63,800 bases of DNA, taken from assembly GCA_039927695.1 (NCBI GenBank), contig JBDSUM010000020.1, positions 1-63,800 on the forward strand. The letters run 5' to 3'. The position numbers were made by a program, and so were the translations under genes. Shown piece after piece: positions 1 to 63,800 of this stretch. Origin of the DNA: Minisyncoccota bacterium. Its GTDB lineage: Bacteria > Patescibacteriota > Minisyncoccia > Phycocordibacterales > Phycocordibacteraceae. The notes beneath the pieces are model-generated. The model ran no database searches and had not been told where the DNA came from. It saw only the letters and a list, made by a program, of their open reading frames with translations. Position 1 is the first letter of the stretch. Each line of letters begins with the position of its first letter.

Positions 1-23
1 GTCGGGGATAGTATTACCCCGAC
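1..23 (+). promoter_or_regulatory. Rolling-circle replication origin stem-loop of CRESS-DNA-virus type, carrying the nonanucleotide TAGTATTAC (9-17)
   Basis: Read directly: 1-7 GTCGGGG pairs with 17-23 CCCCGAC. The loop carries the circovirus/nanovirus nick-site nonamer TAGTATTAC. It lies 24 nt upstream of a Rep gene. Confidence 0.8.
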
Positions 24-39
24 TTCGGGACATTTGGAC
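20..39 (+). repeat. Iteron-like triplet CGAC/GGAC/GGAC at 20-23, 28-31 and 36-39 (8-nt period) beside the origin hairpin
   Basis: Read directly in ccccGACttcgGGACatttGGAC. The position matches where Rep-binding iterons sit in circoviruses. The repeats are short, so chance is possible. Confidence 0.3.
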
Positions 40-46
40 AAAACTT

Positions 47-946
47 ATGGATAAGCAGCTTAAAAGTCGGAGATTTTGCTTTACGATTCCGAACTACTCG
101 GAAGAAGATTTAGAGCGTTTTCACATACTTGCTCAAGAACTGAAGGATCATTGCTACATCTCGTATGGAATTGAAACTGGAGAAACTGGATTTCCTCATA
201 TCCAAGGCTACGTTGAACTCTATACAGCTCAACGATACGCATATCTACAAAAGTATTTTGACTTCAAGAAAGATGGTGAGTTATTAAAATTCCATGTCGA
301 GAAAGCAAATGGTACCGCTGAAGAAAACCGGAAATATACTCAAAAAGAAGGCAATAGCTTTGAATATGGAGAACCTTTAAAGCAAGGTTCTCGTACTGAC
401 TTAAGTGAGATTAAAGAAGCTGTAAGTATGTCCCCTAGAGATATTACAAAGATAGTTCACAACCTCATACAAAATAATCAGCAACTGAAATTTGCAGAGG
501 GTTTGCAACGTTATTATCTTCCTCATCGAGACCCTGCTATTCCTCCGAGAGTATTTTGGCTTTACGGGCAAACTGGCATTGGTAAGACCTCTCTCGTATT
601 TAGAACATTTAAGGATATCTGCGCTGTGTCCTCATATGACTGGCTTGGAACAGACTATATGCAAAACGAGTGCTTCCTTCTAGACGATTACCGAGGATTT
701 GATATTAACTTTAACGAACTACTCCGTCTCACTGATCGTTTTCCGTATACGCTCTACTTCAAAGGTGGGCAAATACCATTCAATTCTCCGTACATTGTGA
801 TTACCTCGCCCTTAAGTATTGACCAGACTTTTAGAGGAAATAATGAGAATCTCCAGCAGCTAAAACGCCGTGTTATTGAGATAGACCTTGATATGGAGCT
901 GGATATAGATTCTATTAATTTGAGGAATTATCAAGAAGGAGCATAA
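47..946 (+). CDS. rep: CRESS-type replication initiator Rep (HUH endonuclease fused to SF3 helicase)
   Basis: 299 aa. HUH motif I CFTIPNY, motif II PHIQGYVEL, motif III YTQKEG. Walker A GQTGIGKTS, Walker B FLLDDY, motif C VITSP. The block LLRLTDRFPY..KGGQIPF parallels circovirus Rep. Confidence 0.93.
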   Translation: MDKQLKSRRFCFTIPNYSEEDLERFHILAQELKDHCYISYGIETGETGFPHIQGYVELYTAQRYAYLQKYFDFKKDGELLKFHVEKANGTAEENRKYTQKEGNSFEYGEPLKQGSRTDLSEIKEAVSMSPRDITKIVHNLIQNNQQLKFAEGLQRYYLPHRDPAIPPRVFWLYGQTGIGKTSLVFRTFKDICAVSSYDWLGTDYMQNECFLLDDYRGFDINFNELLRLTDRFPYTLYFKGGQIPFNSPYIVITSPLSIDQTFRGNNENLQQLKRRVIEIDLDMELDIDSINLRNYQEGA

Positions 947-2439
947 TGCGGCTAAGTATGAAATATCTCATATACGCACGTAAGTCCTCAGAAAGTGAAG
1001 AACGCCAAGTACTCTCTATTCCTGCACAGTTAAGCGAACTGAAAGATATAGCTGAAAAAGAAGAATACGAGGTAGCTAAAATCTTTGAAGAAAGTATGTC
1101 TGCTAAGGCTTCTGGCCGTCCGTTGTTCAATCAAATGCTAGAGCTAATTCAGAAAGGTAAAGGATATTCTCTACTCGTTTGGAATGTAGACCGCCTTGCT
1201 CGAAATATGGTTGATGGTGGTATGCTCCTTGAGCTCATGGATCAAGGCAAGATTCTGGAAATTCGCACTTACGAACGTACCTATCGCAATACTCCTGACG
1301 ATAAGTTTATGATGTCGCTCTACTTCGGTATGGCTAAGAAGTATGTTGACGATCTCTCCGTAAACGTTAAGCGAGGTAACTTAGAAAAACTTAAGCGTGG
1401 TGATTGGACAAGTCGTGCTCCATTCGGTTATTCAAATAATAAAGCGACAAAGACAATAGCTGTTGATACTGTTCGCGCTCCATATGTTCATGAGATGTTT
1501 GAACTCTATTCCACTGGTCTGCATAGCTCACAAGACATTTCAAACCTCCTATACGAAAAAGGTCTGCGTTCTTCTTCTGGAAAGAAAATATATAAATCGG
1601 GCGTACAGAAGATAATTAACTCTCGTTTCTATACAGGAATCATGGAAGCTAATGGAAACGAGTATTTAGGAAATCACGAGCCACTCGTATCTACTCAACT
1701 CTTTGAAAAGTGCAAAGAAGTATCAGACAAGAAAGCACGTCGTACTCGTCCTAAAACACTAAGCTTTACACTCTCTGGCTTCATGACGTGTGCCAATTGC
1801 GGTTGCGCCATAACTGCTGAACTCAAGAAGAATAAATATATCTACTATCACTGCACTAATGGAAAAGGTATTTGTGATCAACGCTCATTTAATGCCAATG
1901 AGACTGAACTGCATAAGCAAATCACTCTCGACCTAAAGAAACTGAAGATTAGCCCGAGAATGATTGATATTGTCTACAAGGCCAAGCTCGAAGAATTGGA
2001 ACATTCAAAGGGAACAGGTGATCATGCATTAGAAGACGCTCAGAAAGCCCTTAAATTGCTCGCCACACGCAAGTCTAGACTCGTAGACACCTATACCGAG
2101 GGAGACATAGATACCGACCTCTATAGGGCTAAACTAAGAGAAATAGATAACGAGAACGTTCGCCTCACTAAGCGCATAGCTGATTTAGAGAAAGAAGTCT
2201 CTGACCCACTCGCAACTATCGAACTCATCTATTCCAAGTTTAAAGAAGGTATTTCCTTGTCGGAACGGTACAAAGCAGTTGAACCTAGCGAAAGACGCAT
2301 CATACTCTCAGAAGCACTATCGAACTCCACTCTACTAAATCGAAATATCGCAGAGATACAGTACAAAAGTCCGTATAACATATTCGCTTTAGCACCCTTA
2401 AACCCTACTTTTTCAGAAATGCTGGCGGGGTCGGTCTAG
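946..2439 (+). CDS. Large serine recombinase (resolvase/invertase catalytic domain, recombinase domain, zinc ribbon, coiled coil)
   Basis: 497 aa. N-terminal LIYARKSSESEE and VWNVDRLARN. Zinc ribbon CANCGC..YYHCTNGKGIC. The ATG overlaps the rep stop (TAATG at 944-948), with SD GAAGGAG at 935-941. Confidence 0.9.
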   Translation: MRLSMKYLIYARKSSESEERQVLSIPAQLSELKDIAEKEEYEVAKIFEESMSAKASGRPLFNQMLELIQKGKGYSLLVWNVDRLARNMVDGGMLLELMDQGKILEIRTYERTYRNTPDDKFMMSLYFGMAKKYVDDLSVNVKRGNLEKLKRGDWTSRAPFGYSNNKATKTIAVDTVRAPYVHEMFELYSTGLHSSQDISNLLYEKGLRSSSGKKIYKSGVQKIINSRFYTGIMEANGNEYLGNHEPLVSTQLFEKCKEVSDKKARRTRPKTLSFTLSGFMTCANCGCAITAELKKNKYIYYHCTNGKGICDQRSFNANETELHKQITLDLKKLKISPRMIDIVYKAKLEELEHSKGTGDHALEDAQKALKLLATRKSRLVDTYTEGDIDTDLYRAKLREIDNENVRLTKRIADLEKEVSDPLATIELIYSKFKEGISLSERYKAVEPSERRIILSEALSNSTLLNRNIAEIQYKSPYNIFALAPLNPTFSEMLAGSV

Positions 2440-2551
2440 AACTCTATTATATTAAGCCTCCGTTGCGCCTCAGAGCGAATTTGAGTGTTGATAAAACGAT
2501 GGGAGTCGGACAGTGATTTAATCCACGCACTGGACCGATTACGGTACGGCA

Positions 2552-2818
2552 TCAACCAAAGGTCGCGCCTCTTAAAGAGAAAAGTAAATACAGGAACGCG
2601 ATCGCAGCAACTAAGATACTAACATCAATGAATAGTAGAACCAGGCGAAGGATCTTATCAGAAGTTTTGGTAAATGTTCGCATCCTTGCATAAATCAGAT
2701 GCCATACCGCCAGGACAGGACCGATCACAGATGACAAGAATAGGATCGTCCAATTTGAATCTGAGAATCCTATCGTAACTAAAACGAAGAGTGCGATGTA
2801 CCCTGCGATAAATATCAT
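2552..2818 (-). CDS. Small hypothetical membrane protein (about 3 TM helices). The ORF is open up to 2914, so the start is uncertain.
   Basis: Hydrophobic segments IFIAGYIALFVLVTIGF, ILFLSSVIGPVLAVW and LVLLFIDVSILVAAIAFLYLL. No recognisable family. Confidence 0.4.
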   Translation of the reverse strand: MIFIAGYIALFVLVTIGFSDSNWTILFLSSVIGPVLAVWHLIYARMRTFTKTSDKILRLVLLFIDVSILVAAIAFLYLLFSLRGATFG

Positions 2819-2951
2819 ATCGGTAATTGTGTTACGAAGAAATAAATGAGCAGGCCAGGATTCATATACTCTATGCATACCACACATGCTGCTTCTGTAC
2901 GGGCATATCGACACAATGAGCCGCGGATGCTAAACACTAGCCTCAATCGGG

Positions 2952-3036
2952 CGGAGAGGGGGAGATTCGAACTCCCGATACCTTTCGGCATGCCGGTTTT
3001 CGAAACCGGTCGTTTCAACCACTCACGCACCTCTCC
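2952..3036 (-). tRNA. tRNA-Ser: tRNA-Ser (anticodon CGA), long variable arm, no encoded CCA
   Basis: Acceptor GGAGAGG/CCTCTCC. Anticodon arm CCGGT-TTCGAAA-ACCGG. T arm GGGAG-TTCGAAT-CTCCC. Confidence 0.9.
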
Positions 3037-3103
3037 GTGGTTTCGACATCCTAGCATTTTTGGCCTAGAAAATGTAGGATAGCAAGGTGAGAGTTCGCAG
3101 AAA

Positions 3104-3175
3104 GGTCCCATCGTCTAACGGTTAGGACGCCCGCCTTTCACGCAGGAAATCGGGGTTCGATTCCCCGTGGGATCA
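3104..3175 (+). tRNA. tRNA-Glu: tRNA-Glu (anticodon TTC)
   Basis: Acceptor GGTCCCA/TGGGATC. Anticodon loop CTTTCAC. T arm GGGGTTCGATTCCCC. Confidence 0.9.
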
Positions 3176-3181
3176 TGCAAC

Positions 3182-3220
3182 CAGAAAGCCGCCCACATGG
3201 CATATGTGAGCGGCTTTCTG
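3182..3220. terminator. Bidirectional hairpin terminator between tRNA-Glu and the pirin gene
   Basis: CAGAAAGCCGC...GCGGCTTTCTG, plus inner CACAT/ATGTG pairing. Confidence 0.7.
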
Positions 3221-3232
3221 CATTATCTACTG

Positions 3233-3940
3233 TTACTGCATCAGAACCTCAATAACAAGAAGCTCAGATGACTCGAGTGCGGAAATGTCTGCAGTAGCAG
3301 CATCTGTAACACCCATAGCGTCTCGTGCAAACAATGTTTCACCCTGCACTTCGATACTTCCGGATATAACAAATAGGTATATTCCATTCCCTTCTATGCG
3401 GGTGTTGTAAGAACTGGCGGTTCCCTTTTCCAATACAAGTTTAGAAATATACGCGTCTTGGTTAATACCCAGACCTTTCTTCGTGTCTTCAGGGCCAACT
3501 AAGAGAGTGGTGTTTTCATTCTTTTCGTTTGAAATACTTGCCTGTGCGTATCGCGGAGCAATACCAAGCTTCTTAGGAAGAATCCAGATCTGGAAAAGTT
3601 CCAATGCCTCTGTGGTCGATGCATTGTATTCAGAGTGAGCGACACCAGTTCCAGCAGACATAACCTGCACTTCTCCTGCTCGTACGGTTCCGACATTTCC
3701 CATATTATCTTTGTGCGTCAATTCACCGCTCATTACTATGGTGATTATTTCCATATCCCGGTGCTGGTGCATGCCGAAACCATTGTCTGCACTAATACGG
3801 TCATCATTTATAACAATGAGTTTTCCAAAGCCTGTGCGAGCGGGATTGTACCAATCGGCAAAGCTAAAGCTGTAACGAGTCGTAAGCCAGCCATAGTCTC
3901 CTCGTCCGCGATCCCCTGCGCGATGTACGACGTTGTTCAT
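3233..3940 (-). CDS. Pirin family protein (bicupin)
   Basis: 235 aa. N-terminal GDYGWLTTRYSFSFADWYNP and the metal-site region FGMHQHRDMEIITIVMSGELTHKD, both typical of the pirin/YhhW family. Confidence 0.85.
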   Translation of the reverse strand: MNNVVHRAGDRGRGDYGWLTTRYSFSFADWYNPARTGFGKLIVINDDRISADNGFGMHQHRDMEIITIVMSGELTHKDNMGNVGTVRAGEVQVMSAGTGVAHSEYNASTTEALELFQIWILPKKLGIAPRYAQASISNEKNENTTLLVGPEDTKKGLGINQDAYISKLVLEKGTASSYNTRIEGNGIYLFVISGSIEVQGETLFARDAMGVTDAATADISALESSELLVIEVLMQ

Positions 3941-3988
3941 CCCATAAGTATGCCTTACCGCGTGTGAAGGATACGTGGGGACAATTAA

Positions 3989-4023
3989 AATACCGCCAAT
4001 TCCTAAAAGGAATTGGCGGTATT
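3989..4023 (-). terminator. Rho-independent terminator of the 4038-4364 gene
   Basis: AATACCGCCAATTCC-TAAAA-GGAATTGGCGGTATT, followed by a T-run on the minus strand. Confidence 0.75.
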
Positions 4024-4037
4024 GAATATGCCTGATT

Positions 4038-4364
4038 TCACCATCGTATGACAGTTATCAAATATCCAACCATCGCAAGACATGCAACACCGCACAGTGC
4101 ATTACAAAGTGCACGTAAGACTCTTGGGTGACGGTACTGCAAATACGTAAGTATGGCCGCACCAATTGTAAATGGCAGTATTGTCGTCGAAAGTCTCAGT
4201 GTGTAACAAAATCTCTTGAGAGATAGGATTGATGGCACTGGCAGATTGACGTGGATAATGCACTCAGCGCTAATGCCAGTGACAAACATCAACACGCTGT
4301 ACATAACAAGGAACGAATACAATACGCGGAGCAGTGACCATGCTCGCGATATAACACGACGCAT
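4038..4364 (-). CDS. Hypothetical small membrane protein
   Basis: 108 aa with about 3 hydrophobic helices. It has its own terminator. No recognisable family. Confidence 0.5.
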   Translation of the reverse strand: MRRVISRAWSLLRVLYSFLVMYSVLMFVTGISAECIIHVNLPVPSILSLKRFCYTLRLSTTILPFTIGAAILTYLQYRHPRVLRALCNALCGVACLAMVGYLITVIRW

Positions 4365-4485
4365 GACAATTCTCCTTTCTAAAAGCGTTTGCTATACAAT
4401 ATACCACTTATTTAGCTTTAAGCAAAGCCCATAGCTCTCTTCACTATTTGAATCTGGTAGTAAATACGGTATCCTTCTGACTATT

Positions 4486-4561
4486 GCGCGGTTAGCTCAG
4501 TTGGTAGAGCGCGTCATTGACGTTGACGATGTCGGGGGTTCGAATCCCTCACCGCGCACCA
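4486..4561 (+). tRNA. tRNA-Val: tRNA-Val (anticodon GAC) with encoded CCA
   Basis: Acceptor GCGCGGT/ACCGCGC. Anticodon arm CGTCA-TTGACGT-TGACG. T arm GGGGG-TTCGAAT-CCCTC. ACCA end at 4558-4561. Confidence 0.92.
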
Positions 4562-5412
4562 TGGAAAACCCAAGAACTATCGTTCTCTATCACGGAAACT
4601 GCCCTGACGGGTTCGGTGGTGCTTACGCTGCGTGGAAGAAATTTGGTGACACTGCTGAATACATGCCGTTGCATCATAACCGGCCAGCGCCACTTGAGAT
4701 TAAAGATTCCATTTTGTACTTCATCGACTTCTGTTACCCAAAGAATGTTATGGATCAATTCGTGGCACAAAATAAAGACGTTACGGTTCTTGACCACCAC
4801 GAAGGTCTCGAAGAAGTAGTCGAGACTATGCCGCATTATGTGTACGACTCAAATCGCTCGGGTGCCACTATTGCATGGTCATACTTCCATCCAGAAATTC
4901 CCGTTCCACAAATGTTTAAGTATGTTGAAGATGGGGATCTATACCGCTTTGTACACCCAGAAGGACGCGCAATACTCGCCTATGTATATGCGCAGCCATA
5001 CACATTTCCATCATGGGAGTCCTTGATTGCAAGAGTAGAGTCTGAGGAAGGGCGAGCTGCAATAAGCAACATTGGAACAACATATCTCGAATACAAAACG
5101 ATACTGATGAAGCAGATAGCTGCTACTGCTGAACCTGTTCGCTTTGAGGGGTATGAATGTATGCTTGCTTCTGCATCACGTGTATTTGTCTCAGACGTAG
5201 GGCACGAGTTATACACCGCGCATCCTCCCATTGCACTTGTGGTTAATACTCGAGTCGATGGTCTACGCGTTTCCATGCGTGGAGACGGCACCGTTGATCT
5301 TGCGAAGATTGCTCAAAAGTATGGAGGCAATGGTCATTTCAGTGCAGCTGCGTTCTCACTCCCCTGGGGCACTCCTATTCCTTGGGAAGTGGTGAAGAAA
5401 GAAGAGGTGTAA
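4561..5412 (+). CDS. DHH-family phosphoesterase (DHH/DHHA1, NrnB-like)
   Basis: 283 aa starting MENPRTIVLYHGNCPDGFGG. Motifs VLDHHEG and GGNGHFSAAAF. The track ORF start at 4501 lies inside tRNA-Val, so the ATG at 4561 is used. Confidence 0.8.
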   Translation: MENPRTIVLYHGNCPDGFGGAYAAWKKFGDTAEYMPLHHNRPAPLEIKDSILYFIDFCYPKNVMDQFVAQNKDVTVLDHHEGLEEVVETMPHYVYDSNRSGATIAWSYFHPEIPVPQMFKYVEDGDLYRFVHPEGRAILAYVYAQPYTFPSWESLIARVESEEGRAAISNIGTTYLEYKTILMKQIAATAEPVRFEGYECMLASASRVFVSDVGHELYTAHPPIALVVNTRVDGLRVSMRGDGTVDLAKIAQKYGGNGHFSAAAFSLPWGTPIPWEVVKKEEV

Positions 5413-5422
5413 GATTTTAATA

Positions 5423-6610
5423 ATGAAGATACTCGCAATTGAAACCTCCTGCGATGAAACGGCAGTAGCTGTGCTTGAGTGCGAATCTACTGGCGAAGGG
5501 AACGCTGCGCGCTTTACGGTGCTCGGCAACGCGCTTTTATCACAAATTGAGATACACCGAGAATTTGGTGGTGTATACCCTGCTGTCGCTAAGCGAGAGC
5601 ACGCAAAGAACTTAGTTCCCCTTTTAGAAAGCGCGCTTGCTGAAGCAAACATGCTTCACGAAGATACTCAATCTATGGATTCGGGTGTGCACGATGCCAT
5701 TACGGCAACACTTGAGCGCGAACCAGGACTCACGGAAGCATTCCTTGCATCCATTGGTGAGATGGAGAAGCCCGAGATTGATGCTATAGCCGTTACGGCA
5801 GGGCCAGGGCTTGAGCCGGCTTTGTGGGTTGGCGTTAATTTCGCTAAGGCATTGTCACTTGCATGGGACAAGCCAATTGTTTCGGTAAATCATATGGAGG
5901 GTCATATTTGTACTGCACTTGCTACTTCCACTGACCAATCTCTCGATATCCCCTCAACTGAACTCCCTCTCCTTTCACTTCTTATTTCTGGTGGTCACAC
6001 CGAGCTAGTACTAGCGCGCGAATGGCTTTCATATGAACTCATAGGTGCAACGCGAGACGATGCGGTTGGTGAAGCATTTGATAAGGTGGCACGCATGCTT
6101 GGACTCCCCTATCCAGGAGGTCCTGAGATTTCAAGACTTGCTGAACTCGCACGAGCACGCGGTGGAGAGAATCCCTATACTCTCCCGCGACCAATGATTC
6201 ATGATCCCCATTGCGACTTCTCCTTCAGCGGACTTAAGACATCTGTCCTCTATTTAGTTAAAGATAAGGAACTAAGTGAGACACAAAAAGAAGACCTCGC
6301 TCTAGCCTTTGAAGACGCTGTGGCAGACGTGCTGTACGCAAAGACAAGTCGTGCGCTTATGGATACGAGCGCAAAAACACTCGCTCTTGGTGGTGGCGTG
6401 TCAGCAAACACTCATATTAAGCGCGCGTTCGCAGAGCGGATGGCAGCAGACTTCCCCGATGTGCGTCTATGCATTCCTGCTGCTTCGCTCACGTCTGACA
6501 ACGCACTTATGATCGGCATGGCTGGTTTTTATCACGCCGCAAAAGGCGACTTCGTCGTCCTCGACGAGCTTAAAGCCAATGGCAACCGTAAACTCGCTGA
6601 CGCAGCGTAA
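5423..6610 (+). CDS. tsaD: tRNA N6-adenosine threonylcarbamoyltransferase TsaD (Kae1/Gcp family)
   Basis: 395 aa. MKILAIETSCDETAVAV, VNHMEGH, SGGHTEL, and FSFSGLKTS blocks. Confidence 0.9.
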   Translation: MKILAIETSCDETAVAVLECESTGEGNAARFTVLGNALLSQIEIHREFGGVYPAVAKREHAKNLVPLLESALAEANMLHEDTQSMDSGVHDAITATLEREPGLTEAFLASIGEMEKPEIDAIAVTAGPGLEPALWVGVNFAKALSLAWDKPIVSVNHMEGHICTALATSTDQSLDIPSTELPLLSLLISGGHTELVLAREWLSYELIGATRDDAVGEAFDKVARMLGLPYPGGPEISRLAELARARGGENPYTLPRPMIHDPHCDFSFSGLKTSVLYLVKDKELSETQKEDLALAFEDAVADVLYAKTSRALMDTSAKTLALGGGVSANTHIKRAFAERMAADFPDVRLCIPAASLTSDNALMIGMAGFYHAAKGDFVVLDELKANGNRKLADAA

Positions 6611-6650
6611 CTAAGGCAAATCCGCCCTGTATTTGCTATAGTAAGAGCAA

Positions 6651-8765
6651 ATGCTTAGCGAAAACGACGAAAACGGAAAGTTTCTAAAACCGTACGATCC
6701 CGCTGCGACCGAAGGTCGTATATATAAGGTGTGGGAAGATAGTGGCTATTTCAATCCTGACAATTTGCCGAATGCCGACTCCCGCAAGCCGTTCACTATC
6801 GTCATGCCACCGCCGAACGCAAACGGTAACCTCCATGCAGGCCATGCCCTTTTCGTAACCCTCCAAGACCTCATGATTCGCTTTAAGCGAATGCAGGGAT
6901 ACAAGGCTCTCTGGATTCCCGGCGCAGACCATGCAGGGTTCGAGACTCAGGTCGTGTACGAAAAGAAACTTGAAAAAGAAGGCCGTTCTCGCTTTGGAAT
7001 GGACCCTAAAGAGCTCTACGCAGAAATCCTGGAGTTTACACTCGCGAACAAGTCGATTATGGAAGGTCAGGTTAAAGCGCTCGGAGCGTCATGTGACTGG
7101 TCACGTGAAAAATTCACCCTAGATCCAGACGTCGTTACCCGAGTTCAACAAACATTTATAAAGATGTTTGTTGACGGTCTCATATACCGTGGCAAACGTA
7201 CCGTTAACTGGTGTCCAAAACATCAAACGTCTCTTTCCGACATTGAAACTGAGAGTGTCGAAGAAAACACACCCTTCTATACCTTTAAGTATGGTCCATT
7301 CGATATTGGTACCGTGCGTCCAGAGACAAAGTTTGGTGACAAGCATGTCGTAATGCATCCAGACGATATGCGCTACGCGCAGTACAAGCATGGGGACACA
7401 TTCGATCTTGAATGGATCAATGGTCCTATTACCGCGACAGTCATAAAGGATTCATCCGTTGATCCAGAATTTGGTACGGGTGTTATGACCATTACTCCCT
7501 GGCACAGTCAGGTGGACTTCGAGATCGCAAAGCGTCACAACCTCGACATGGAACAGATTATCGACTGGCGAGGCAAACTCCTTCCAATCGCTGGGGAATT
7601 TGAGGGTATGAAGATTACTGAAGCTCGTGCAAAGATTATAGAGAAACTGGCTAGCAAGGGTCTTTTAGTATCTATCGATGAGAAATACCAAAATGTTGTG
7701 AAGCGATGCTACAAGTGTTCGACTATGATCGAGCCACAGGTTAAGGATCAGTGGTTCGTAAAGATGGCTCCGCTCGCACAAAAAGCTATCGAAGCAGTGA
7801 ATGCTGGCGAAGTGAAGTTTATTCCTGACCACGAAGAGAAAATCTTCCGACATTGGATGGAGAACACGCTCGACTGGAATATTTCTCGCCAAATAGTATG
7901 GGGCATTCCCATACCTGCCTGGTTTAAAGATGGCGACGCTATTGCAAGCCTTGAATCACCTGGTGAAGGATGGGTTCAGGATATCGATACCTTCGACACC
8001 TGGTTCTCCTCAGGACAATGGCCGCTGATGACCACAGGGTATCCGGATGGAAAAGATTTTGAAACACACTACCCTACTGACGTCATGGAAACAGGGCGCG
8101 ATATTATTTTCTTCTGGGTTGCGCGTATGATTTGTTTTGGATTGTACCTCACTGGTAAGGCTCCATTCCATACCGTATATCTGCATGGTCTTGTGAATGA
8201 CGCGCACAATAAGAAAATGTCTAAATCAAAAGGTAACGTGATTAATCCGCTTGAGCTTACAGAAAAATATGGAACCGATGCACTTCGCATGGCACTTGTT
8301 GTAGGAAATACACCGGGTACTGATCTTGCACTTCGCGAAGACAAGATTAAGGGTTATAAGAACTTCGCAAATAAGCTTTGGAATATTGCGCGTTTTATAC
8401 TTGAAAGCACTGAAGGATATGATCCATCGGCTGCTCTCTCAGAAAATGATCAAGTGATACGTTCTGAATTCGATACCATTATCGCTGACGTTACCAAAGA
8501 TATGGAGGCATATCGCATCTATCTCGCTGCCGAGAAGATATACCACTACGTGTGGGATCGTCTTGCAAGCGAATTGCTTGAAGATTCGAAGCAAATATTT
8601 GCTGCAAGTGACGAAGTTGCTAGCGCATCTCGTAAAGCACTCTTGCGTTCACTTCTTAATGACGTTCTAAAAGTTCTTCATCCTTTCATGCCATTTGTTA
8701 CTGAAGAAATATGGCAGAGTCTCTCCGATACTCAGGGATTATTAATGATTCAAGAGTGGCCGTAG
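6651..8765 (+). CDS. valS: Valine--tRNA ligase (compact form, no C-terminal coiled coil)
   Basis: 704 aa. HIGH-type NLHAGHA and KMSKSKGN motifs. ValRS blocks WIPGADHAGFETQ, TVRPETKFGD and GTGVMTITPWH. Confidence 0.88.
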   Translation: MLSENDENGKFLKPYDPAATEGRIYKVWEDSGYFNPDNLPNADSRKPFTIVMPPPNANGNLHAGHALFVTLQDLMIRFKRMQGYKALWIPGADHAGFETQVVYEKKLEKEGRSRFGMDPKELYAEILEFTLANKSIMEGQVKALGASCDWSREKFTLDPDVVTRVQQTFIKMFVDGLIYRGKRTVNWCPKHQTSLSDIETESVEENTPFYTFKYGPFDIGTVRPETKFGDKHVVMHPDDMRYAQYKHGDTFDLEWINGPITATVIKDSSVDPEFGTGVMTITPWHSQVDFEIAKRHNLDMEQIIDWRGKLLPIAGEFEGMKITEARAKIIEKLASKGLLVSIDEKYQNVVKRCYKCSTMIEPQVKDQWFVKMAPLAQKAIEAVNAGEVKFIPDHEEKIFRHWMENTLDWNISRQIVWGIPIPAWFKDGDAIASLESPGEGWVQDIDTFDTWFSSGQWPLMTTGYPDGKDFETHYPTDVMETGRDIIFFWVARMICFGLYLTGKAPFHTVYLHGLVNDAHNKKMSKSKGNVINPLELTEKYGTDALRMALVVGNTPGTDLALREDKIKGYKNFANKLWNIARFILESTEGYDPSAALSENDQVIRSEFDTIIADVTKDMEAYRIYLAAEKIYHYVWDRLASELLEDSKQIFAASDEVASASRKALLRSLLNDVLKVLHPFMPFVTEEIWQSLSDTQGLLMIQEWP

Positions 8766-8822
8766 GGTACAATTAGCGGTAACGCGCCGCCAAGCCAAGC
8801 TGCTAAGCACGTACTACAACAA

Positions 8823-9581
8823 ATGGAGTTCCTTAATTCGGTATCGTTCTCAACACTTTGTTTCGCCTTCGTAGGCGGCATGCTTCCTGCATTATTGTGG
8901 TTGTACTTCCTTCTTAAAGAAGACTATCGCCACCCAGAACCTCGCACCATTTTACTTATGGCCTTTATGGCCGGTATGGCTGCCGTGCCACTTGCTGTAC
9001 CCTTTGAAGCGTACTTCAGAGACTACGCGTATAGCATTGTCCCTGGTTGTTCTCCTTATGCTTCACTTTGTTTCCCTATTATTACCGGCTGGGCGATTAT
9101 CGAAGAAACACTTAAATATTTGCTTGCGGCAGTTGTGGTGTTGTGGCGCCGCGACGTAGACGAATCAATTGACTTGGTTATTTACATGATCACGGCGGCG
9201 CTTGGTTTCGCGGCGCTCGAGAACATGCTGTTCCTCATTGAACCTTTTGCAGCACACGACTACCTCGCAGCACTCGCCACCGACAATCTTCGTTTCGTTG
9301 GCTCAACACTACTTCATGTTATTGCTTCAAGTGCTATTGGTTTCTCTCTCGCATTTGCGCACAAACTTCCCTGCTGGTATCGCGGTTTTGCTGCATCCGC
9401 AGGACTTATCCTTGCGATCGCATTGCACACGACGTTTAATTTCCTTATAATTCCTCGAGACGACTCGCATAGCATCCTAAGTGCATTCTTGTTTGTTTGG
9501 AGCGGTGCTGTCGTATTGTTCGCACTCTTCGAATTATTAAAATACTTCCAGTATAGAGACGAACCAATAACTACTGTTTAG
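8823..9581 (+). CDS. PrsW-family intramembrane metalloprotease
   Basis: 252 aa, multi-TM. Motifs IIEETLKY, AALENMLF, LLHVIASS and LHTTFNF. Confidence 0.8.
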   Translation: MEFLNSVSFSTLCFAFVGGMLPALLWLYFLLKEDYRHPEPRTILLMAFMAGMAAVPLAVPFEAYFRDYAYSIVPGCSPYASLCFPIITGWAIIEETLKYLLAAVVVLWRRDVDESIDLVIYMITAALGFAALENMLFLIEPFAAHDYLAALATDNLRFVGSTLLHVIASSAIGFSLAFAHKLPCWYRGFAASAGLILAIALHTTFNFLIIPRDDSHSILSAFLFVWSGAVVLFALFELLKYFQYRDEPITTV

Positions 9582-9600
9582 CTTACCTACTTATTTACGT

Positions 9601-10110
9601 ATGAAAAAACGATCTTTCTTCGAACGACTTTCCGGCTCAGTTCCGGTAACAGACGACTATGACGCATTCGAAGATGACGTCGTGCCTGCACGTCGCCTTG
9701 CTCCTGCCCAAGCTCCTATGACCACAAGCTCTACGCCACAGATTCACGCTGCCTATGATGACCACGAGGATACTGAGAGCGAAGGACAACTTCCTGTAGA
9801 TGTATACCAAACAGCAAGTGAGATCGTTATCCGCACATTCATCGCAGGCGTACGCGCTGACGAAATCAACCTTTCTATAAGTCGCGACATGGTAGTCATC
9901 GAAGGAGCTCGTGCAGAACGCGAAACTATCCAGGATTCAGACTATTTCATTCGTGAACTCTTCTGGGGTACGTTCTCTCGAACAATCCTCCTCCCTCAGG
10001 AAGTAGACGTCGATAACTCAAGCGCGAATGCTAAAGACGGTCTTCTTACCCTCATCCTTCCTAAGCTCGACAAGGCAAAGCAGACAAAGCTTCGCGTTAA
10101 AGCAGGATAG
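9601..10110 (+). CDS. Hsp20/alpha-crystallin small heat-shock protein
   Basis: 169 aa. Alpha-crystallin domain LPVDVYQT..VIRTFIAGV..GTFSRTILLPQEVD..DGLLTLILPK. Confidence 0.85.
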   Translation: MKKRSFFERLSGSVPVTDDYDAFEDDVVPARRLAPAQAPMTTSSTPQIHAAYDDHEDTESEGQLPVDVYQTASEIVIRTFIAGVRADEINLSISRDMVVIEGARAERETIQDSDYFIRELFWGTFSRTILLPQEVDVDNSSANAKDGLLTLILPKLDKAKQTKLRVKAG

Positions 10111-11196
10111 TTAGCGAACTTCAGTTATTAGCGTTGGCTCGGAGCTCTCGTTCACCACAGTGAACGAGAGTTTTCCCATTACCTGGCCGTCAATTGTCTG
10201 TACTATCACACGCCACTTGCCTGCTTGAGGATCGGATTTCATTGAGTATCCTCGGTAGCCTTGCTCCCTTCCACCTGATAGCGGGAAAGCAATCGATGCC
10301 TCATCTATCCACTTCTTACTTATCGGGTTATACCACTGCCAGTGGTGCACGATGGTTGTTGTAAAGTCACCAGGCGCAAATATTGAGCTAAAGGCATAGA
10401 GCGGTGTTCCAGCTACATGATGCACAATCTGTATGCGTGGATCGAACCATGCCCGCACAGGCTCTCCAGTGAGCGCGTACATGCCCTCTGTGTGTGTAAT
10501 GGAATGGTATATACCGCCAGATTTAAGAGCAAGAGGAATTGGCGGCAATAGGTTTGTTAGATATGCAGAAACAATGAGAAAGGTCGCGATGGCAGCGGAG
10601 ATGAGAATGAGATTCAAAGCTCTGCGCAAGCGCTTCCAGCCTAAAAGACCGAGCAAGAGTAAGTACACAATAAATGCAGCAATAGTAAGCGTCGTACTTT
10701 CAAGAAATACTATCTTTCCTAACCTTCCGAGGTAGAGCGGGAGAGCAAATATTGAAAAAGCATACAAGGAGAAAAAGATGAGGAGTGATTGAAAGACTAA
10801 GTGGTCGCGATAGTTACGAAACACCTCGTTACCAAAGAAGATGAGTCCGAGAAGTATGAGGAACGGCCATGACACGGAAAGCACCGCACTCTTTGTATAA
10901 AAGATGAGAAAACCTGATAGCAAGCTACCGATCACAAACTGAGCCAGAAGTGGGCCGAGAATAGTTATGGAACGTCTTAATTTACCTCCCTGCTTACTAG
11001 CTGCTCTGTGGGAAATTAACGTCACCACAATAACAATCACCAAGTACGCAACAAACAACTTTATTACGGACGGTAAGTTTAATAATCCAAACGTAAGCAG
11101 GTCACTTACGAAGCCTCCAATAAACAGTGCCGTTGCGAGTGGACGCTCGTAGCGCTGTGCGAAAGCCAGAACGGTTTCGAAGCGTAAGTGCGTCAT
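10111..11196 (-). CDS. Multi-pass membrane protein with a C-terminal DUF2914-like domain
   Basis: 361 aa, about 8 TM helices. C-terminal IVHHWQWYNP..GYRGYSMKS..GKWRVIVQTIDGQ..SFTV resembles DUF2914, recalled from memory. Confidence 0.65.
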   Translation of the reverse strand: MTHLRFETVLAFAQRYERPLATALFIGGFVSDLLTFGLLNLPSVIKLFVAYLVIVIVVTLISHRAASKQGGKLRRSITILGPLLAQFVIGSLLSGFLIFYTKSAVLSVSWPFLILLGLIFFGNEVFRNYRDHLVFQSLLIFFSLYAFSIFALPLYLGRLGKIVFLESTTLTIAAFIVYLLLLGLLGWKRLRRALNLILISAAIATFLIVSAYLTNLLPPIPLALKSGGIYHSITHTEGMYALTGEPVRAWFDPRIQIVHHVAGTPLYAFSSIFAPGDFTTTIVHHWQWYNPISKKWIDEASIAFPLSGGREQGYRGYSMKSDPQAGKWRVIVQTIDGQVMGKLSFTVVNESSEPTLITEVR

Positions 11197-11199
11197 TTG

Positions 11200-11272
11200 T
11201 GCTTGGAGCCGGATTCGAACCGGCGACCCCTTCCTCTTCAGGGAAATGCTCTACCAACTGAGCTATCCAAGC
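11200..11272 (-). tRNA. tRNA-Phe: tRNA-Phe (anticodon GAA)
   Basis: Acceptor GCTTGGA/TCCAAGC. D arm GCTCAGTTGGTAGAGC. Anticodon loop CTGAAGA. T arm CCGGTTCGAATCCGG. Confidence 0.92.
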
Positions 11273-11353
11273 ATGTGTACTGCCCAGTCCAATGACTGAG
11301 CAATATGGCTATCCTACCATGCCTTACAAATTCTTTCAGCCCCTCCAAACAAG

Positions 11354-11665
11354 CTACTTGCTCGTGCTGCTGGCGATGGAGGCACGATATGAATTCATTA
11401 TATCCTGGATTTCTGTAGGCGATGGGAAGCCAAAAAGACTACCTCCTGCCTTGCTCGTGTCAGATGCAGGGATGAAGGTTCGCACGAATGGACCTAGGAG
11501 TATGAATGGGAGGACGAGGATAAGGAGCCACATAACTGCCTTGGTCCAGAATGCGAGTCGTCCTGTGCGAACTAAAGTTCGTAGGAGCTTATTGTTCTCT
11601 TCCGCAAGATCAATAGAATCTTGCACGAGTTGTTCCAAGCGCGAGATTGATGCTTCGTCGTTCAT
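11354..11665 (-). CDS. Hypothetical small membrane protein (N-terminal coiled segment, one TM)
   Basis: 103 aa. TM AVMWLLILVLPFILLGPFV. It sits between the 8-Cys protein gene and tRNA-Phe on the same strand. Confidence 0.5.
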   Translation of the reverse strand: MNDEASISRLEQLVQDSIDLAEENNKLLRTLVRTGRLAFWTKAVMWLLILVLPFILLGPFVRTFIPASDTSKAGGSLFGFPSPTEIQDIMNSYRASIASSTSK

Positions 11666-11686
11666 AGCTTCAAATAGTGTAGCAGG

Positions 11687-12418
11687 TTACGCGCCTGATG
11701 GTGTCTGGAGACACGTAAGCAATTCTTTGCTTTGTGTCCAGCCACACTTACCACTCGACTGACGCTCACATGCGGCTGTCTTGTAGCACGCATACTCAGA
11801 ACGATAGATACACGTAGAAACAGCGCCCGGTGTGTCTGAACATAGTTCAGACGAGCAACCACCGATGTAACAAGGTCCTGCTGATATTGGTCCTGTAGTA
11901 ACAGGATGTGGCTCTACCAGAATAGTGAACCGATATGAACTCGCAACAGGAGCTCCGTCTTTTTCATGCGGAGGTGTAACGCTCACAAACGTAATGTCAT
12001 CAGTGCCAACTGTTATAACCTTACCAAGTGCCAAATCATGGTTTGTGGTGCCAGTCTTCGTTGTTGTCTTGAGTGTTATGCGGACAGTACCAGCTTGGAT
12101 ACATTGCACGCCTACAGGACAACGACTATCTTCAAGTACCGCTGTTGGTCGCACAGAAAGCCCGTCCTTAAAGCCCGCAGATTGATTGAGTGCGAGTACA
12201 ACAGAACCGTACGGATAGTACCTGACTACTGGAGTGCCCGTAGTTGTATGAGTAGTGGTTGAGGTCGTTGTGGTAGCTATCTGCGCAGCAGGAGTCGTGG
12301 TAGACGTTGGTGGCAAAATAGCTGCGATAGGGCGAATACTGTGTACGACCAGCCAAATACCTATAGCGAGAGCAAGGACGATGACGGCACCTGGAATGAA
12401 GAAGTCTTTCTTTTGCAT
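11687..12418 (-). CDS. Membrane-anchored secreted protein with a Thr-rich linker and a C-terminal eight-cysteine domain
   Basis: 243 aa from the ATG at 12418; the longer track ORF runs into tRNA-Arg. C-terminal CYIGGCSSELC..STC..YAC..AAC..GKC..LTC has exactly 8 Cys. Confidence 0.65.
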   Translation of the reverse strand: MQKKDFFIPGAVIVLALAIGIWLVVHSIRPIAAILPPTSTTTPAAQIATTTTSTTTHTTTGTPVVRYYPYGSVVLALNQSAGFKDGLSVRPTAVLEDSRCPVGVQCIQAGTVRITLKTTTKTGTTNHDLALGKVITVGTDDITFVSVTPPHEKDGAPVASSYRFTILVEPHPVTTGPISAGPCYIGGCSSELCSDTPGAVSTCIYRSEYACYKTAACERQSSGKCGWTQSKELLTCLQTPSGA

Positions 12419-12469
12419 ATAGGTAGTATACCGCCTATTTCCTATGTCTGCAGGGTCTAGTGGATATCG

Positions 12470-12544
12470 TGGTGCCCTCGGCAAGAATCGAACTTACATC
12501 GTCTCGTTAGGAGTGAGATGCTCTATCCATTGAGCTACGAGGGC
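12470..12544 (-). tRNA. tRNA-Arg: tRNA-Arg (anticodon CCT) with encoded CCA
   Basis: Acceptor GCCCTCG/CGAGGGC. Anticodon loop CTCCTAA. T arm GTAAG-TTCGATT-CTTGC. Confidence 0.88.
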
Positions 12545-12572
12545 AATAGGGGCACATGAAGGACAGTAGCAC

Positions 12573-12601
12573 GAAAGCGCCCTCCAAAGGAGGGCGCTTT
12601 C
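12573..12601 (-). terminator. Hairpin terminator downstream of the glutaredoxin-like gene
   Basis: GAAAGCGCCCTCC-AAA-GGAGGGCGCTTTC, a perfect 13-bp stem. Confidence 0.7.
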
Positions 12602-12612
12602 TCTATAACTAC

Positions 12613-12855
12613 TTACGCTGCAATCCCTGCGAGTGAAGCCAATCTCTCCTTATCGAAGCCAACCATCATCTCGTCACCGACGAAGATAACCGGTACTCCC
12701 ATCTGACCGCTCTTCTCAATCATTTCCTGGCGCTTTGCAAGGTCTGTCTGCACGTCATAGTCCGTAAATGCTACGTTGTTTTCCTTGAGGAAATCCTTCG
12801 CCATATGGCAGAAGTGGCAAGTTGGCGTGCTGTAAATAGTGATGTTCTTATCCAT
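12613..12855 (-). CDS. Glutaredoxin-like protein (NrdH/YruB-like)
   Basis: 80 aa. Redox motif TCHFCHMAKDFL and the GVPVIFVGDEMMVGFD block. Confidence 0.85.
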   Translation of the reverse strand: MDKNITIYSTPTCHFCHMAKDFLKENNVAFTDYDVQTDLAKRQEMIEKSGQMGVPVIFVGDEMMVGFDKERLASLAGIAA

Positions 12856-12933
12856 AAAAGTTTGATTACTTCCCTGTCAGTATACCATTTTGGTTATCCC
12901 CAGGTGGCCGTCCGGAGTGATATTCGAACTCTA

Positions 12934-13893
12934 CTATTTAAATACGAACGATCCACTATCCATCTTTAGGGTCAAGACTAACTCCCCTTTTGAAGTAAAT
13001 AGATAGCTCTGCGATTCGCTAAGCATTTTATTAAATTGAGTCTCTTGTGAAGAGGGACAATACATGAGTGTCGACGTCATATCGCCAAACGTAATGTTCT
13101 TACCACTAGTACTATACGTGCCAGAAATTGAATTACAGTCCGTTGTTGCGGAAAATCTCCCATTCGCGGAAAACTTTATTACAAATGCCGACGTCTTGTT
13201 TGGCGTTACCGTTGTTCCATCGCTATAAAGCGTATGGATCCATGTCCAGTCTTTCATACCGAGAGACATGCTCGAAGGATTTGCTTCGCCTCCAAAGTTT
13301 TGAGCAACTTCTCCAAATTTCATGGTGCTAGGGTCGAGTAAAAGCCAGACACTTTTCCCAACAGAAGGTTGTACTGCAAAACTCTCTCCCGCTTTCCTGT
13401 CTGCGTAATTTATTACAACAACATTCTTTTGAGCTGGGTTACTACTCATCTGTGTTGTTTGTGGAGCAATTCGATCACCCAGTAAAAAGCCCTGTGAACC
13501 TTTGTATCCGCTAGCGGTGTTAAGAGCTGCTACAGCATAATAGAATGTTCCGCTGCCTCCGCCTGTTTGTGTAAGAAGAAAAACAGTATCAGGTCTACCA
13601 TCACCATCTAGATCGTGTGTAACTTCATTTCCAAAATACTTGGTAATTAATTTTGATGCTGAACCCGGTGCTATTTCGCTTTCCGCCACACCATTCACCA
13701 GTGTTACAGGTTTACCCTCTATGTTGTATGTCGCATTTTTAAAGCCTGAGCCGACTTCTGTTGTAGTTGGTGGTATAACTTCTGCAATGTCAGACTGCTG
13801 AATCGGGTGGAGAAGAATAAAGGTAATTATTCCTACGATAGCTATACATGCTACGGTTACCGGAATTACGTATCGTCTTTGGCTGGACGTCAT
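12934..13893 (-). CDS. Membrane-anchored protein with a C-terminal META (HslJ-like) domain
   Basis: 319 aa with an N-terminal TM. DLDGDGRPDTVFLL repeat-like motif. C-terminal FSANGRFSATTDCNSISGTY..ITFGDMTSTLMYC resembles a META domain. Confidence 0.65.
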   Translation of the reverse strand: MTSSQRRYVIPVTVACIAIVGIITFILLHPIQQSDIAEVIPPTTTEVGSGFKNATYNIEGKPVTLVNGVAESEIAPGSASKLITKYFGNEVTHDLDGDGRPDTVFLLTQTGGGSGTFYYAVAALNTASGYKGSQGFLLGDRIAPQTTQMSSNPAQKNVVVINYADRKAGESFAVQPSVGKSVWLLLDPSTMKFGEVAQNFGGEANPSSMSLGMKDWTWIHTLYSDGTTVTPNKTSAFVIKFSANGRFSATTDCNSISGTYSTSGKNITFGDMTSTLMYCPSSQETQFNKMLSESQSYLFTSKGELVLTLKMDSGSFVFK

Positions 13894-13976
13894 TGTTACT
13901 AAGTATACTGCCTGTTGTATGAATAATGGATGACAGTCTAAGATTCGAACAGTATTAGTCTATCGGAAACACAAAA

Positions 13977-14336
13977 CTAAAGCCCAAAGAAATTCCTAAT
14001 TTTCTGCCAAGTCGTAAGGGGTGGCGGAGGTACAACCTCTTTCTTCGGAACTACGATAATAACGTCCTCGCCGGGTTTAGCAACGCCAAAGGTTTCTCGT
14101 ACTGAGGCTTCCTGACCTCGTTGTGTATCCATATCCCCCACCGTTCCTGCCAGAGTCTTTGTACGCGCATCGAGTGCGGCAAGATCTGTTTGCGTCTGAT
14201 GAACAGTGCGTCGTGCAACCTCTTCTTTCTTATAAATACTGTACACAAGGAAAGAAAACCATACGATGGCTAGCAGTAATATACCGGTCTTCACCATGTC
14301 GCGCGTACTAACTTTCTTCCTCGCTCGTCGTGCCAT
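13977..14336 (-). CDS. Septum formation initiator (FtsB/DivIC-like) protein
   Basis: 119 aa. A single TM, then a coiled coil, then a RETFGVAKPGEDVIIV tail, typical of the family. Confidence 0.6.
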   Translation of the reverse strand: MARRARKKVSTRDMVKTGILLLAIVWFSFLVYSIYKKEEVARRTVHQTQTDLAALDARTKTLAGTVGDMDTQRGQEASVRETFGVAKPGEDVIIVVPKKEVVPPPPLTTWQKIRNFFGL

Positions 14337-14359
14337 TACCTATCAGTATACCAAGCTGA

Positions 14360-17837: not shown

Positions 17838-17848
17838 ATGCTTGTGCT

Positions 17849-24866: not shown

Positions 24867-24954
24867 TGGCGGAGGCGGAGAGATTCGAACTCTCGATACC
24901 TTTCGATATGCCACCTTTCCAAGGTGGTGGAATAAACCGCTATCCGACGCCTCC
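24867..24954 (-). tRNA. tRNA-Ser: tRNA-Ser (anticodon GGA) with encoded CCA
   Basis: Acceptor GGAGGCG/CGCCTCC. Anticodon arm CCACC-TTGGAAA-GGTGG. Long variable arm. T arm GAGAG-TTCGAAT-CTCTC. Confidence 0.9.
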
Positions 24955-63524: not shown

Positions 63525-63800
63525 TTATTTCAAATACTTATTAACATTACTCTTCTGTCCTCCATACGTAACAGAACAATGAATATCGTGGCTCGCGTCA
63601 TGGAGGTAGAAAAGGCAATTCGTACTTTCAGGATTGAGTACTGCAGCGATAGACTCAAGGCTCGGGTTATTGATAGGGTGCGGCGGAAGACCAGTGTGTT
63701 GGTACGTATTAAAAGGAGACTTTAGATATTTGTCGGCACTTAAGGGCGTGGGCCACCAATTCCCTTCTGTTCCCTTTATATATTGCAGCGTTGCATCTGC
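63525..63800 (-). CDS. mltG: Endolytic transglycosylase MltG (YceG-like), C-terminal 91 codons only; the gene continues beyond the window
   Basis: Hand translation of the minus strand: ..SPFNTYQHTGLPPHPINNPSLESIAAVLNP..CLFYLHD..H..SVTYGGQKSNVNKYLK, stop at 63525-63527. It is absent from the ORF track because no start codon lies in the window. Confidence 0.75.
   Translation of the reverse strand, partial: ADATLQYIKGTEGNWWPTPLSADKYLKSPFNTYQHTGLPPHPINNPSLESIAAVLNPESTNCLFYLHDASHDIHCSVTYGGQKSNVNKYLK

Follow-up and report, generated by a model that had tools for sequence, protein, structure and literature searches.

A putative circovirus-type rolling-circle origin in an integrated plasmid-like element of Parcubacteria

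The candidate origin and the genes beside it

In this study, we analysed a candidate replication origin and the genes that follow it at the left edge of a bacterial contig. The DNA is a stretch of 63,800 nucleotides (nt), here called the window, and is apparently the whole of contig JBDSUM010000020.1 from a Minisyncoccota bacterium (assembly GCA_039927695.1). As shown in Table 1, a hairpin carrying the nonamer of circovirus and nanovirus origins is followed by two short repeats, by rep, whose product combines an HUH endonuclease with an SF3 helicase, and by the gene of a large serine recombinase. The start of the recombinase gene overlaps the rep stop codon by one base (TAATG). On record, Rep is a 314-amino-acid (aa) product that is open to the contig edge. 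The window holds the element to which these features belong only from the origin hairpin rightwards.

Table 1. Features of the candidate origin, its genes and its right junction in the window, with the second hairpin found in relatives (L numbers denote loci of the Rep family)
Feature	Position	Strand	Details
Candidate origin hairpin, 5' end cut by contig edge	1..26	+	5' arm 1-7, loop 8-16, 3' arm 17-26
Nonamer TAGTATTAC	9..17	+	sole exact copy in window
Putative Rep-binding repeats	27..40	+	GGGACA 27-32, GGACA 36-40, 8 nt apart, directly 3' of full stem
rep, HUH endonuclease and SF3 helicase, 299 aa	47..946	+	Pfam Viral_Rep 6e-11, RNA_helicase 4e-6
Large serine recombinase (integrase), 497 aa	946..2439	+	Resolvase, Recombinase and Zn_ribbon_recom; PHROG integrase 6e-81
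Right junction (attR core and host arm)	2421..2445	+	GCTGGCGGGGTCGGTCTAGAACTC...; identity with empty site starts at 2421
G+C-rich hairpin in relatives	L001 9908-9950; L002 10001-10043; L003 7878-7939; L007 7887-7931; L008 7904-7943; L053 3842-3876		

Bases 1-7 (GTCGGGG) are complementary to bases 17-23 (CCCCGAC), and the loop between them reads ATAGTATTA (9 nt). The final C of the nonamer is the first paired base of the 3' arm and lies outside the loop. When the DNA was folded, this hairpin was the minimum-energy structure (-7.8 kcal/mol, z = -2.67), and 2 of 200 shuffled sequences folded as well. A first-pass annotation, made from the sequence of the window, had described a hairpin with the circovirus/nanovirus nonamer at this edge, and both the sequence and the fold confirmed it. 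However, the stem of 7 base pairs (bp) given there is cut by the contig end. Pairing in the window is limited to bases 17-23 of the 3' arm, which is itself complete, and the next three bases (24-26, TTC) are matched in relatives by a GAA of the 5' arm that falls beyond base 1. L001 and L002, the closest two relatives with long contigs (Reps about 70% identical to that of the window), have the arms GAAGTCGGGG and CCCCGACTTC, which fold into a stem of 10-12 bp. Exact-protein look-ups with the Rep and the recombinase of the window returned no other contig, and the upstream context was therefore taken from relatives.

The nonamer lies on the rep-sense strand in a non-coding stretch and ends 30 nt before the rep ATG. 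By analogy with the Reps of circoviruses and nanoviruses, the nick site would be placed between T15 and A16 (TAGTATT/AC). The exact nonamer alone is not improbable, as one copy was seen in the window against 0.40 expected and at least one copy was present in 35 of 100 shuffles. Therefore, the case for an origin rests on position and conservation.

Conservation of the hairpin in related loci

Related loci were collected by protein-guided scans of genomes, metagenomes and viral contigs and by exact-protein look-ups. The family comprises 45 loci with Reps 44-72% identical to that of the window, and 43 of them, including the window, keep DNA upstream of rep. We found a hairpin with the exact octamer AGTATTAC upstream of rep in 40 of these 43 loci. 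The exceptions were L056, which has AGTATTGC, L059, which has AGTGTTAC, and L062, which is without the 5' arm. In the 40 relatives that keep the octamer unchanged, rep begins (by tblastn) 32-56 nt after the octamer's first A. The gene of the recombinase is frameshifted in L059, whose nonamer reads CAGTGTTAC, and the two changes together fit the joint decay of an inactive copy. The same frameshift is present in L061, whose contig begins inside rep, so that the origin lies outside it.

Stems of 8-12 bp and loops of 8-12 nt were found across the family. The arms occur in 14 versions, and complementarity is kept in each, for example in GTTGCCATAG/CTATGGCAAC, AGGGTCGAGG/CCTCGACCCT, ATGTCGTG/CACGACAT and AAAGTCGGGG/CCCCGACTTT. 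An alignment of the origins with MAFFT misaligned the divergent stems, and the arms were instead extracted by best pairing. In this set 95% of arm cells were paired compared to 59% after shuffling, a count that leans towards structure because of the extraction by best pairing. None of 500 shuffles reached the observed value, and pairing fell to 39-46% when the partners were slid by 1-3 columns. All 10 stem pairs showed changes on both sides, some of these double changes being register shifts of one base. In addition, a stretch of about 35 nt at the origin is the same, base for base, in elements with Reps of only about 55-60% identity, which argues for selection on the DNA itself. The first-pass annotation had named a lack of conservation in homologous elements as a possible refutation of its reading; the hairpin and the nonamer proved to be conserved. 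The octamer also occurs once in most distant 2-3 kb viral contigs of the circular Rep-encoding single-stranded (CRESS) DNA type that were retrieved.

Repeats and a second hairpin at the origin

The motifs CGAC (20-23), GGAC (28-31) and GGAC (36-39) recur in the window with an exact period of 8 nt, and they had been taken as iterons in the first-pass annotation. GGACA is repeated at 28-32 and 36-40, and tandem repeats were also found in relatives. The CGAC at 20 is stem sequence and no independent repeat because the full 3' arm spans 17-26, and about ten origins have a single repeat unit only. In the main clade, GGGACA directly follows the stem and is near-invariant. A second (G/A)GACA lies 8 nt on in about half of the origins (among them the window, L001, L003, L005, L008, L057, L063, L109 and L113). 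In distant clades the corresponding position is occupied by other tandem repeats, namely GGGAC-T-GGGAC in L068 and L078, ATGGGAA-ATGGGAA in L069 and L012, and GGACA-GGACA in L067 and L010. The two copies alter in step across clades, which is the behaviour of iterons, and they are putative Rep-binding repeats. These comparisons partly support the view that the repeats beside the stem are iterons, which would not be universal in the family.

A long G+C-rich hairpin was found 1-5 nt upstream of the origin hairpin in the main clade. Its stem has 12-20 bp and a variable sequence, and the regions with both hairpins fold with z of -4 to -7.5. It is placed within the 3' end of a gene for a protein of about 74 aa and is absent from distant clades (L010, L067 and L069). 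In the window this hairpin would sit just beyond base 1. It may be a single-strand origin, or it may be the cause of contig breaks. The open reading frame (ORF) of about 74 aa (MQFS..EYQQEM..; L001 9775-9999 and homologues) belongs to no known family and terminates inside or just past the origin hairpin in most members; its 3' end corresponds to window 1-42. Its product may control copy number, or it may act in recombination as a directionality factor. For the DNA to the left of the hairpin, the first-pass annotation had guessed a divergent gene or a second set of iterons. The relatives showed neither of these; the G+C-rich hairpin is preceded there by co-directional genes for the proteins of about 74 aa and about 289 aa.

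The Rep protein

The Rep of the window contains motif I (CFTIPNY), motif II (HIQ, of the HUQ type), motif III (Y97xxK100), Walker A (GQTGIGKT) and Walker B (LLDD). All of these are invariant or nearly so across 30 diverse members of the family. With a family profile, the best solved relative was the Rep of porcine circovirus 2 (PCV2; 7LAR) with an E-value of 1.9e-31, and the match spans both domains. An AlphaFold2 model of Rep had a mean predicted local distance difference test score (pLDDT) of 82.5. The modelled nuclease domain superposed onto circovirus Rep domains in complex with the cleavage-site 10-mer (7KII, 7KIJ, 6WDZ), with template modelling (TM) scores of 0.82-0.85 and root-mean-square deviations of 2.4-2.7 Å. 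The modelled ATPase domain superposed onto the PCV2 ATPase with a TM score of 0.73. In close pairs, the ratio of nonsynonymous to synonymous substitution rates (dN/dS) of Rep was 0.016-0.13, which indicates strong purifying selection.

The architecture of CRESS-DNA virus Reps, in which HUH motifs I-III are fused to an SF3 helicase with Walker A, Walker B, motif C and an arginine finger, is present save for the Asn of motif C. Motif C reads (I/F)TSP across the family and ITSP in the window (806-817; residues 254-257 are TSPL). The Asn is conserved in all CRESS-DNA viruses and in the bacterial plasmid clades pCRESS2 and pCRESS3 (Kazlauskas et al. 2019, Supplementary Note, PMC6668415). A near-invariant Asn is present in the family seven residues upstream (LNSPY). 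Rep is about 28-36% identical to viral Reps. The best viral match in IMG/VR was 36% identical, and no family member was found among the 2.9 million contigs of that database.

The recombinase, the element layout and its cargo

A large serine recombinase gene lies 0-90 nt after rep in every locus with downstream DNA. Its product has the catalytic, recombinase and zinc-ribbon domains of large-serine-recombinase elements, and as in such elements it is encoded by an edge gene that overlaps the attachment site. In about 20 loci the recombinase gene meets, 3' end to 3' end, a tRNA gene of the other strand, mostly tRNA-Gln and also tRNA-Ser or tRNA-Asn. Nine small contigs end no more than 110 nt past the recombinase gene. 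Five long loci have a 16-19 nt copy of the tRNA 3' end at a distance of 3.5-5.3 kb upstream from the origin, and elements of 5.9-7.8 kb are marked off in this way. The order in relatives is the left attachment site (attL), variable cargo, the gene of a 289-aa protein, the gene of the protein of about 74 aa, the G+C-rich hairpin, the origin hairpin, rep, the recombinase gene and the right attachment site (attR). From the conserved gene of the 289-aa protein (275-305 aa) onward all genes lie on a single strand, and the cargo of L007 and L067 is mostly on the opposite strand. The cargo includes DUF2726, an XRE-type helix-turn-helix (HTH) protein, a HEPN-like protein and a coiled-coil membrane protein. 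The model of the 289-aa protein (pLDDT 84) is helical with an alpha/beta part, and its matches to winged-helix proteins are local only. A Foldseek search of this model against PDB and BFVD gave nothing better than an E-value of 0.7.

Because both Rep and origin match those of circoviruses and nanoviruses in type, we considered whether the element is an integrated single-stranded DNA virus. In this case it would be a CRESS-like provirus infecting the Candidate Phyla Radiation (CPR), its origin would serve virion genomes, and one of the genes without annotation would encode a capsid. In line with this, several genes of the element belong to no known family, and the conserved 289-aa protein has no known fold relative. 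However, no capsid or virion family was found with Pfam and PHROGs in the cargo and core proteins, and the 289-aa model was likewise negative, being helical with a winged-helix-like N-terminus and no jelly roll. The searches for a capsid with Pfam, PHROGs and, on the 289-aa protein, AlphaFold2 with Foldseek were thus all negative. Furthermore, the variable cargo (DUF2726, XRE-type HTH, HEPN-like) has the look of defence and regulation, the family is absent from IMG/VR, and 6-8 kb exceeds typical CRESS genomes. We consider a provirus improbable.

Insertion polymorphism and host

An empty site was found in L114 (Logan SRR26386597), a sister strain that is 100% identical to window 2421-18765 (16,345 bases) and lacks the element. 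The site was compared at window 2421-2445 against L114 5771-5795. Left of the junction, L114 contains unrelated host genes (DUF1761, PAP2, endonuclease V ... FtsZ). As the identity begins at base 2421, the right junction lies at 2420/2421, in the last six codons of the recombinase gene and 19 nt before its stop. It follows that these last six codons are host-side DNA and that the element is a presence/absence polymorphism. Occupied and empty alleles thus coexist among otherwise identical strains, and judged by this junction the window's copy is a recent insertion.

The target, GCTGGCGGGGTCGGTCTAGAAC..., resembles a tRNA 3' end. No tRNA was found at the right junction by ARAGORN or Rfam, and the nearest, tRNA-Ser(cga), is about 500 nt off. 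A tRNA-Ser(gga) at window 24867-24954 and the tRNA adjoining the L002 recombinase gene are 100% identical, and the flanks are syntenic with L002 at window 20.5-23.7 kb and 24.9-34.1 kb. The integration site of the L002 type is therefore apparently unoccupied in this genome.

The bacterial context assumed in the first-pass annotation was borne out by the valyl-tRNA synthetase (ValRS) of the contig. It is 74-92% identical to its best 120 matches, and the named ones among these are all from Parcubacteria, Patescibacteria or Paceibacterota metagenome-assembled genomes (MAGs). On the evidence of ValRS, the host is a Parcubacteria/Paceibacterota bacterium. Matches to the Rep family in genome collections came from Paceibacterota, Kaiserbacteria, Nomurabacteria, Minisyncoccia and Saccharibacteria bins, from two unclassified bacterial MAGs and from one Crocinitomicaceae bin.

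These observations also bear on whether the origin is functional, as the first-pass annotation had argued, or whether the hairpin is a relic without function, or serves transcription only, as a terminator or attenuator placed between rep and the gene of the 74-aa protein, and holds the nonamer by chance. The hairpin does lie between two co-directional genes, the exact nonamer is expected 0.4 times per window, and L056 and L059 have point changes in the octamer. However, the loop octamer is invariant while the stem co-varies, and a terminator would constrain the stem instead; the conserved loop by itself goes most of the way to refuting this reading. There is no T-run 3' of the stem in the window sequence, and an Rfam search gave no match for the origin hairpin; a terminator or a known RNA was ruled out on these two grounds. 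Moreover, the motifs of Rep are invariant and its gene shows strong purifying selection, the insertion is recent and polymorphic, its site being empty in a strain 100% identical over 16.3 kb, and the copy with the frameshifted recombinase gene (L059) also has a mutated nonamer, AGTGTTAC. These results support a functional origin, and we regard a relic or a chance signal as highly improbable.

The origin as a module boundary

We found that the origin hairpin is also a boundary between parts of the element. L058 1597-4133 is 90.5% identical to L007 7936-10465 (2,538 nt), and the similarity begins 13 nt ahead of the nonamer's A and runs as far as the attachment arm. Upstream of this block of origin, rep and recombinase, L058 is unrelated to L007 and resembles L107. 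Similarity differs between the left and the right of the origin also in L001/L052, L053/L054 and L004/L113. These alignments indicate that elements exchange the block with one another in one piece and that the breakpoint lies at the hairpin. In L058 an inverted copy of the attachment arm (GGCTTCGAGTCCCTGTC) is present about 70 nt past that arm.

Some contigs also start near the origin. Four of the 43 contigs (the window, L059, L062 and L065) begin within 60 nt of the nonamer, compared to about 0.3 expected with an even spread. In the window, the contig break may be due to origin-side variation, to an origin shared by co-occurring elements, to a coverage step or to the strong double hairpin. 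In L062, bases 1-30 contain foreign sequence ending in ...CTAAT that is joined to ACCCCGAC..., at or a few bases from the predicted nick, and the 5' arm of the hairpin is missing. The start of this contig reads as unrelated ...GTGACTAAT joined to ACCCCGACTTCGAGACA. Either Rep has joined the two sequences illegitimately or the contig is an assembly chimera. Rolling-circle replication is well known to give rise to recombination at the nick site, and the breakpoints are therefore indirect support for nicking in vivo.

The same breakpoints could be read in another way, in which Rep acts as a transposase or relaxase and the hairpin is the end, or the transfer origin, of a Rep-mobilised unit of origin, rep and recombinase, comparable to IS91, Helitrons, Replitrons or plasmid mobilisation. 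The breakpoint exactly at the hairpin (L058 compared to L007 and L107), the excess of contig starts near the nonamer and the L062 junction at or near the predicted nick are in line with this. However, the borders of relatives are tRNA-end repeats 3.5-5.3 kb upstream, with a dedicated integrase, and a second nick site was sought within the window's element and not found. The fusion to an SF3 helicase is typical of replication initiators. The breakpoints need no separate mechanism, being a known rolling-circle by-product, and contig breaks could arise equally from the G+C-rich double hairpin or from an origin shared by co-occurring elements. Such mobilisation by Rep seems to us an unlikely account of the hairpin.

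Interpretation and proposed mechanism

From these results, it is likely that bases 1-46 are the double-strand nick-site origin of a rolling-circle replicon in an integrative plasmid-like element of Parcubacteria, a group of the CPR. What was observed directly is the anatomy of the locus, its conservation, an intact Rep, an intact integrase and the insertion polymorphism. In the mechanism that we propose, the serine recombinase would excise the element as a double-stranded circle, as suggested by the polymorphism and by the direct repeats of tRNA 3' ends in relatives. Rep would bind the GGACA repeats and the right arm of the stem, and the hairpin would be extruded. By analogy with circoviruses and nanoviruses, Tyr97 of the HUH domain would cut TAGTATT/AC between T15 and A16 and stay on the 5' end. 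The free 3'-OH would prime a host polymerase, and synthesis would proceed rightwards through rep with unwinding by the SF3 domain, again as in these viruses. Once the origin is regenerated, a second cut-and-join by Rep would free a single-stranded circle, as the same analogy predicts. The host would then restore the duplex from this circle, possibly with priming at the adjacent G+C-rich hairpin.

Several points weigh against this interpretation. The window's own copy has nothing upstream of the stem, and 19 small contigs searched for a circular form of the element showed no overlap between their ends. About a third of the origins lack the second repeat unit, and the iteron model may not be general. 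The extraction of arms by best pairing biases the pair count towards structure, and register shifts of one base account for some of the double changes. Motif C of Rep has Pro for Asn, which could alter the ATPase chemistry. Finally, serine recombinases do not normally leave direct repeats of 16-19 nt, and the attachment sites as given here are provisional in their details.

Comparison with known systems

Origins of Circoviridae and Nanoviridae contain a stem-loop with (T/N)AGTATTAC, a Rep nick between positions 7 and 8, and direct repeats beside the stem. The element shares with them the octamer AGTATTAC, which is displayed by a hairpin loop of the rep-sense strand a short way before rep, with repeats 3' of the stem. 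CRESS-type origins have a nonanucleotide NAGTATTAC in or at a stem-loop, and TAGTATTAC is found at this place in the window. The likeness extends to the protein, which is a HUH(Q) and SF3 Rep whose closest solved relatives are circovirus Reps. In contrast to circoviruses and nanoviruses, the element is 6-8 kb long and lies in a bacterial chromosome, has an integrase, and has no detected capsid gene. Its upstream genes are co-directional and not divergent, and the main clade has a second, G+C-rich hairpin. Because it is integrated, lacks a capsid and measures 6-8 kb, the element is not a CRESS-DNA virus (Cressdnaviricota).

The closest described kind is that of the pCRESS integrated plasmids, especially the p4M-like cluster and pCRESS3. 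The clades pCRESS1-9 comprise integrated and extrachromosomal bacterial plasmids (Kazlauskas, Varsani, Koonin & Krupovic 2019, PMC6668415). They are capsid-less, encode a CRESS-related nuclease-helicase Rep, are mostly integrated site-specifically, often at tRNA genes, and carry variable cargo (PMC6668415). The element resembles them as a capsid-less bacterial element with a CRESS-related Rep, tRNA-linked site-specific integration and variable cargo, and it shares the HUQ motif II with pCRESS3. It differs from pCRESS in having a large serine recombinase in every locus, whereas pCRESS has a tyrosine recombinase, and in its Patescibacteria/Parcubacteria host, as four bacterial phyla are given in PMC6668415 with no mention of the CPR. 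Unlike in pCRESS2 and pCRESS3, the Asn of motif C is absent from the family Rep. Nonanucleotide origins are not described in the main text of PMC6668415.

The window Rep was 26% identical to a pCRESS3 Rep (53 bits) compared to 28% identical to a circovirus Rep from the trimmed alignment of PMC6668415 (86 bits). The sole plasmid match in PLSDB was p4M of Bifidobacterium, at 27.5% identity. Judged by pairwise identities, the family Rep looks like a group apart from clades pCRESS1-9.

Rolling-circle plasmids of the pMV158/pE194 type likewise have a hairpin nick site beside rep, a double-strand origin that is cut by an HUH Rep, and a separate hairpin serves them as single-strand origin. The larger imperfect palindrome near the family origin might, as a guess by analogy, be the counterpart of their single-strand origin. 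Unlike the family, these plasmids have Reps without a helicase domain, use other nick sequences and are not integrative. A search of the full-text literature, with subscription journals outside its coverage, found CRESS-type Reps connected in no paper with either Patescibacteria/Parcubacteria or serine recombinases.

Eukaryotic CRESS-DNA viruses have been proposed to descend from integrated plasmids of bacteria that encode CRESS-like Reps. The present results would extend the known pCRESS kind to the CPR, with a different class of integrase, and what is shared with circoviruses and nanoviruses reaches beyond the protein to the cis-acting origin, down to the octamer. Circovirus-like Rep matches in metagenomes may stem from CPR bacteria and not from eukaryotic viruses. 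A small self-replicating element that integrates site-specifically could also seed genetic tools for CPR bacteria, which are hard to manipulate. Two questions become testable, namely whether these Reps cut the circoviral site and in which direction the module travelled. It is conceivable, and we put it forward as a speculation that is more doubtful than the origin itself, that the family, with its HUQ-type Rep and a hairpin origin carrying an identical AGTATTAC, is the closest prokaryotic counterpart yet of the circovirus/nanovirus module. It would then be either a survivor of the plasmid lineage ancestral to that branch of CRESS-DNA viruses or a CPR capture of a module from eukaryotic viruses, and the origin would also serve as a second, Rep-driven recombination site that shuffles the block of origin, rep and integrase.

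The far end of the contig

At window 63526-63800 the contig stops inside yceG (mltG), whose product is 84-86% identical to that of the yceG located 3.6 kb left of the element in L001. That the contig closes into a circle was ruled out, as its far end lies inside yceG and the empty site in L114 implies a left flank of DUF1761, PAP2 and endonuclease V genes that is absent from the window. The seeming circular adjacency given by the yceG likeness is probably a coincidence, as the left flank in L114 differs. On the minus strand, the last 8 kb of the window are taken up by one ORF of 2,716 aa (55241-63391), whose product begins like a signal peptide.

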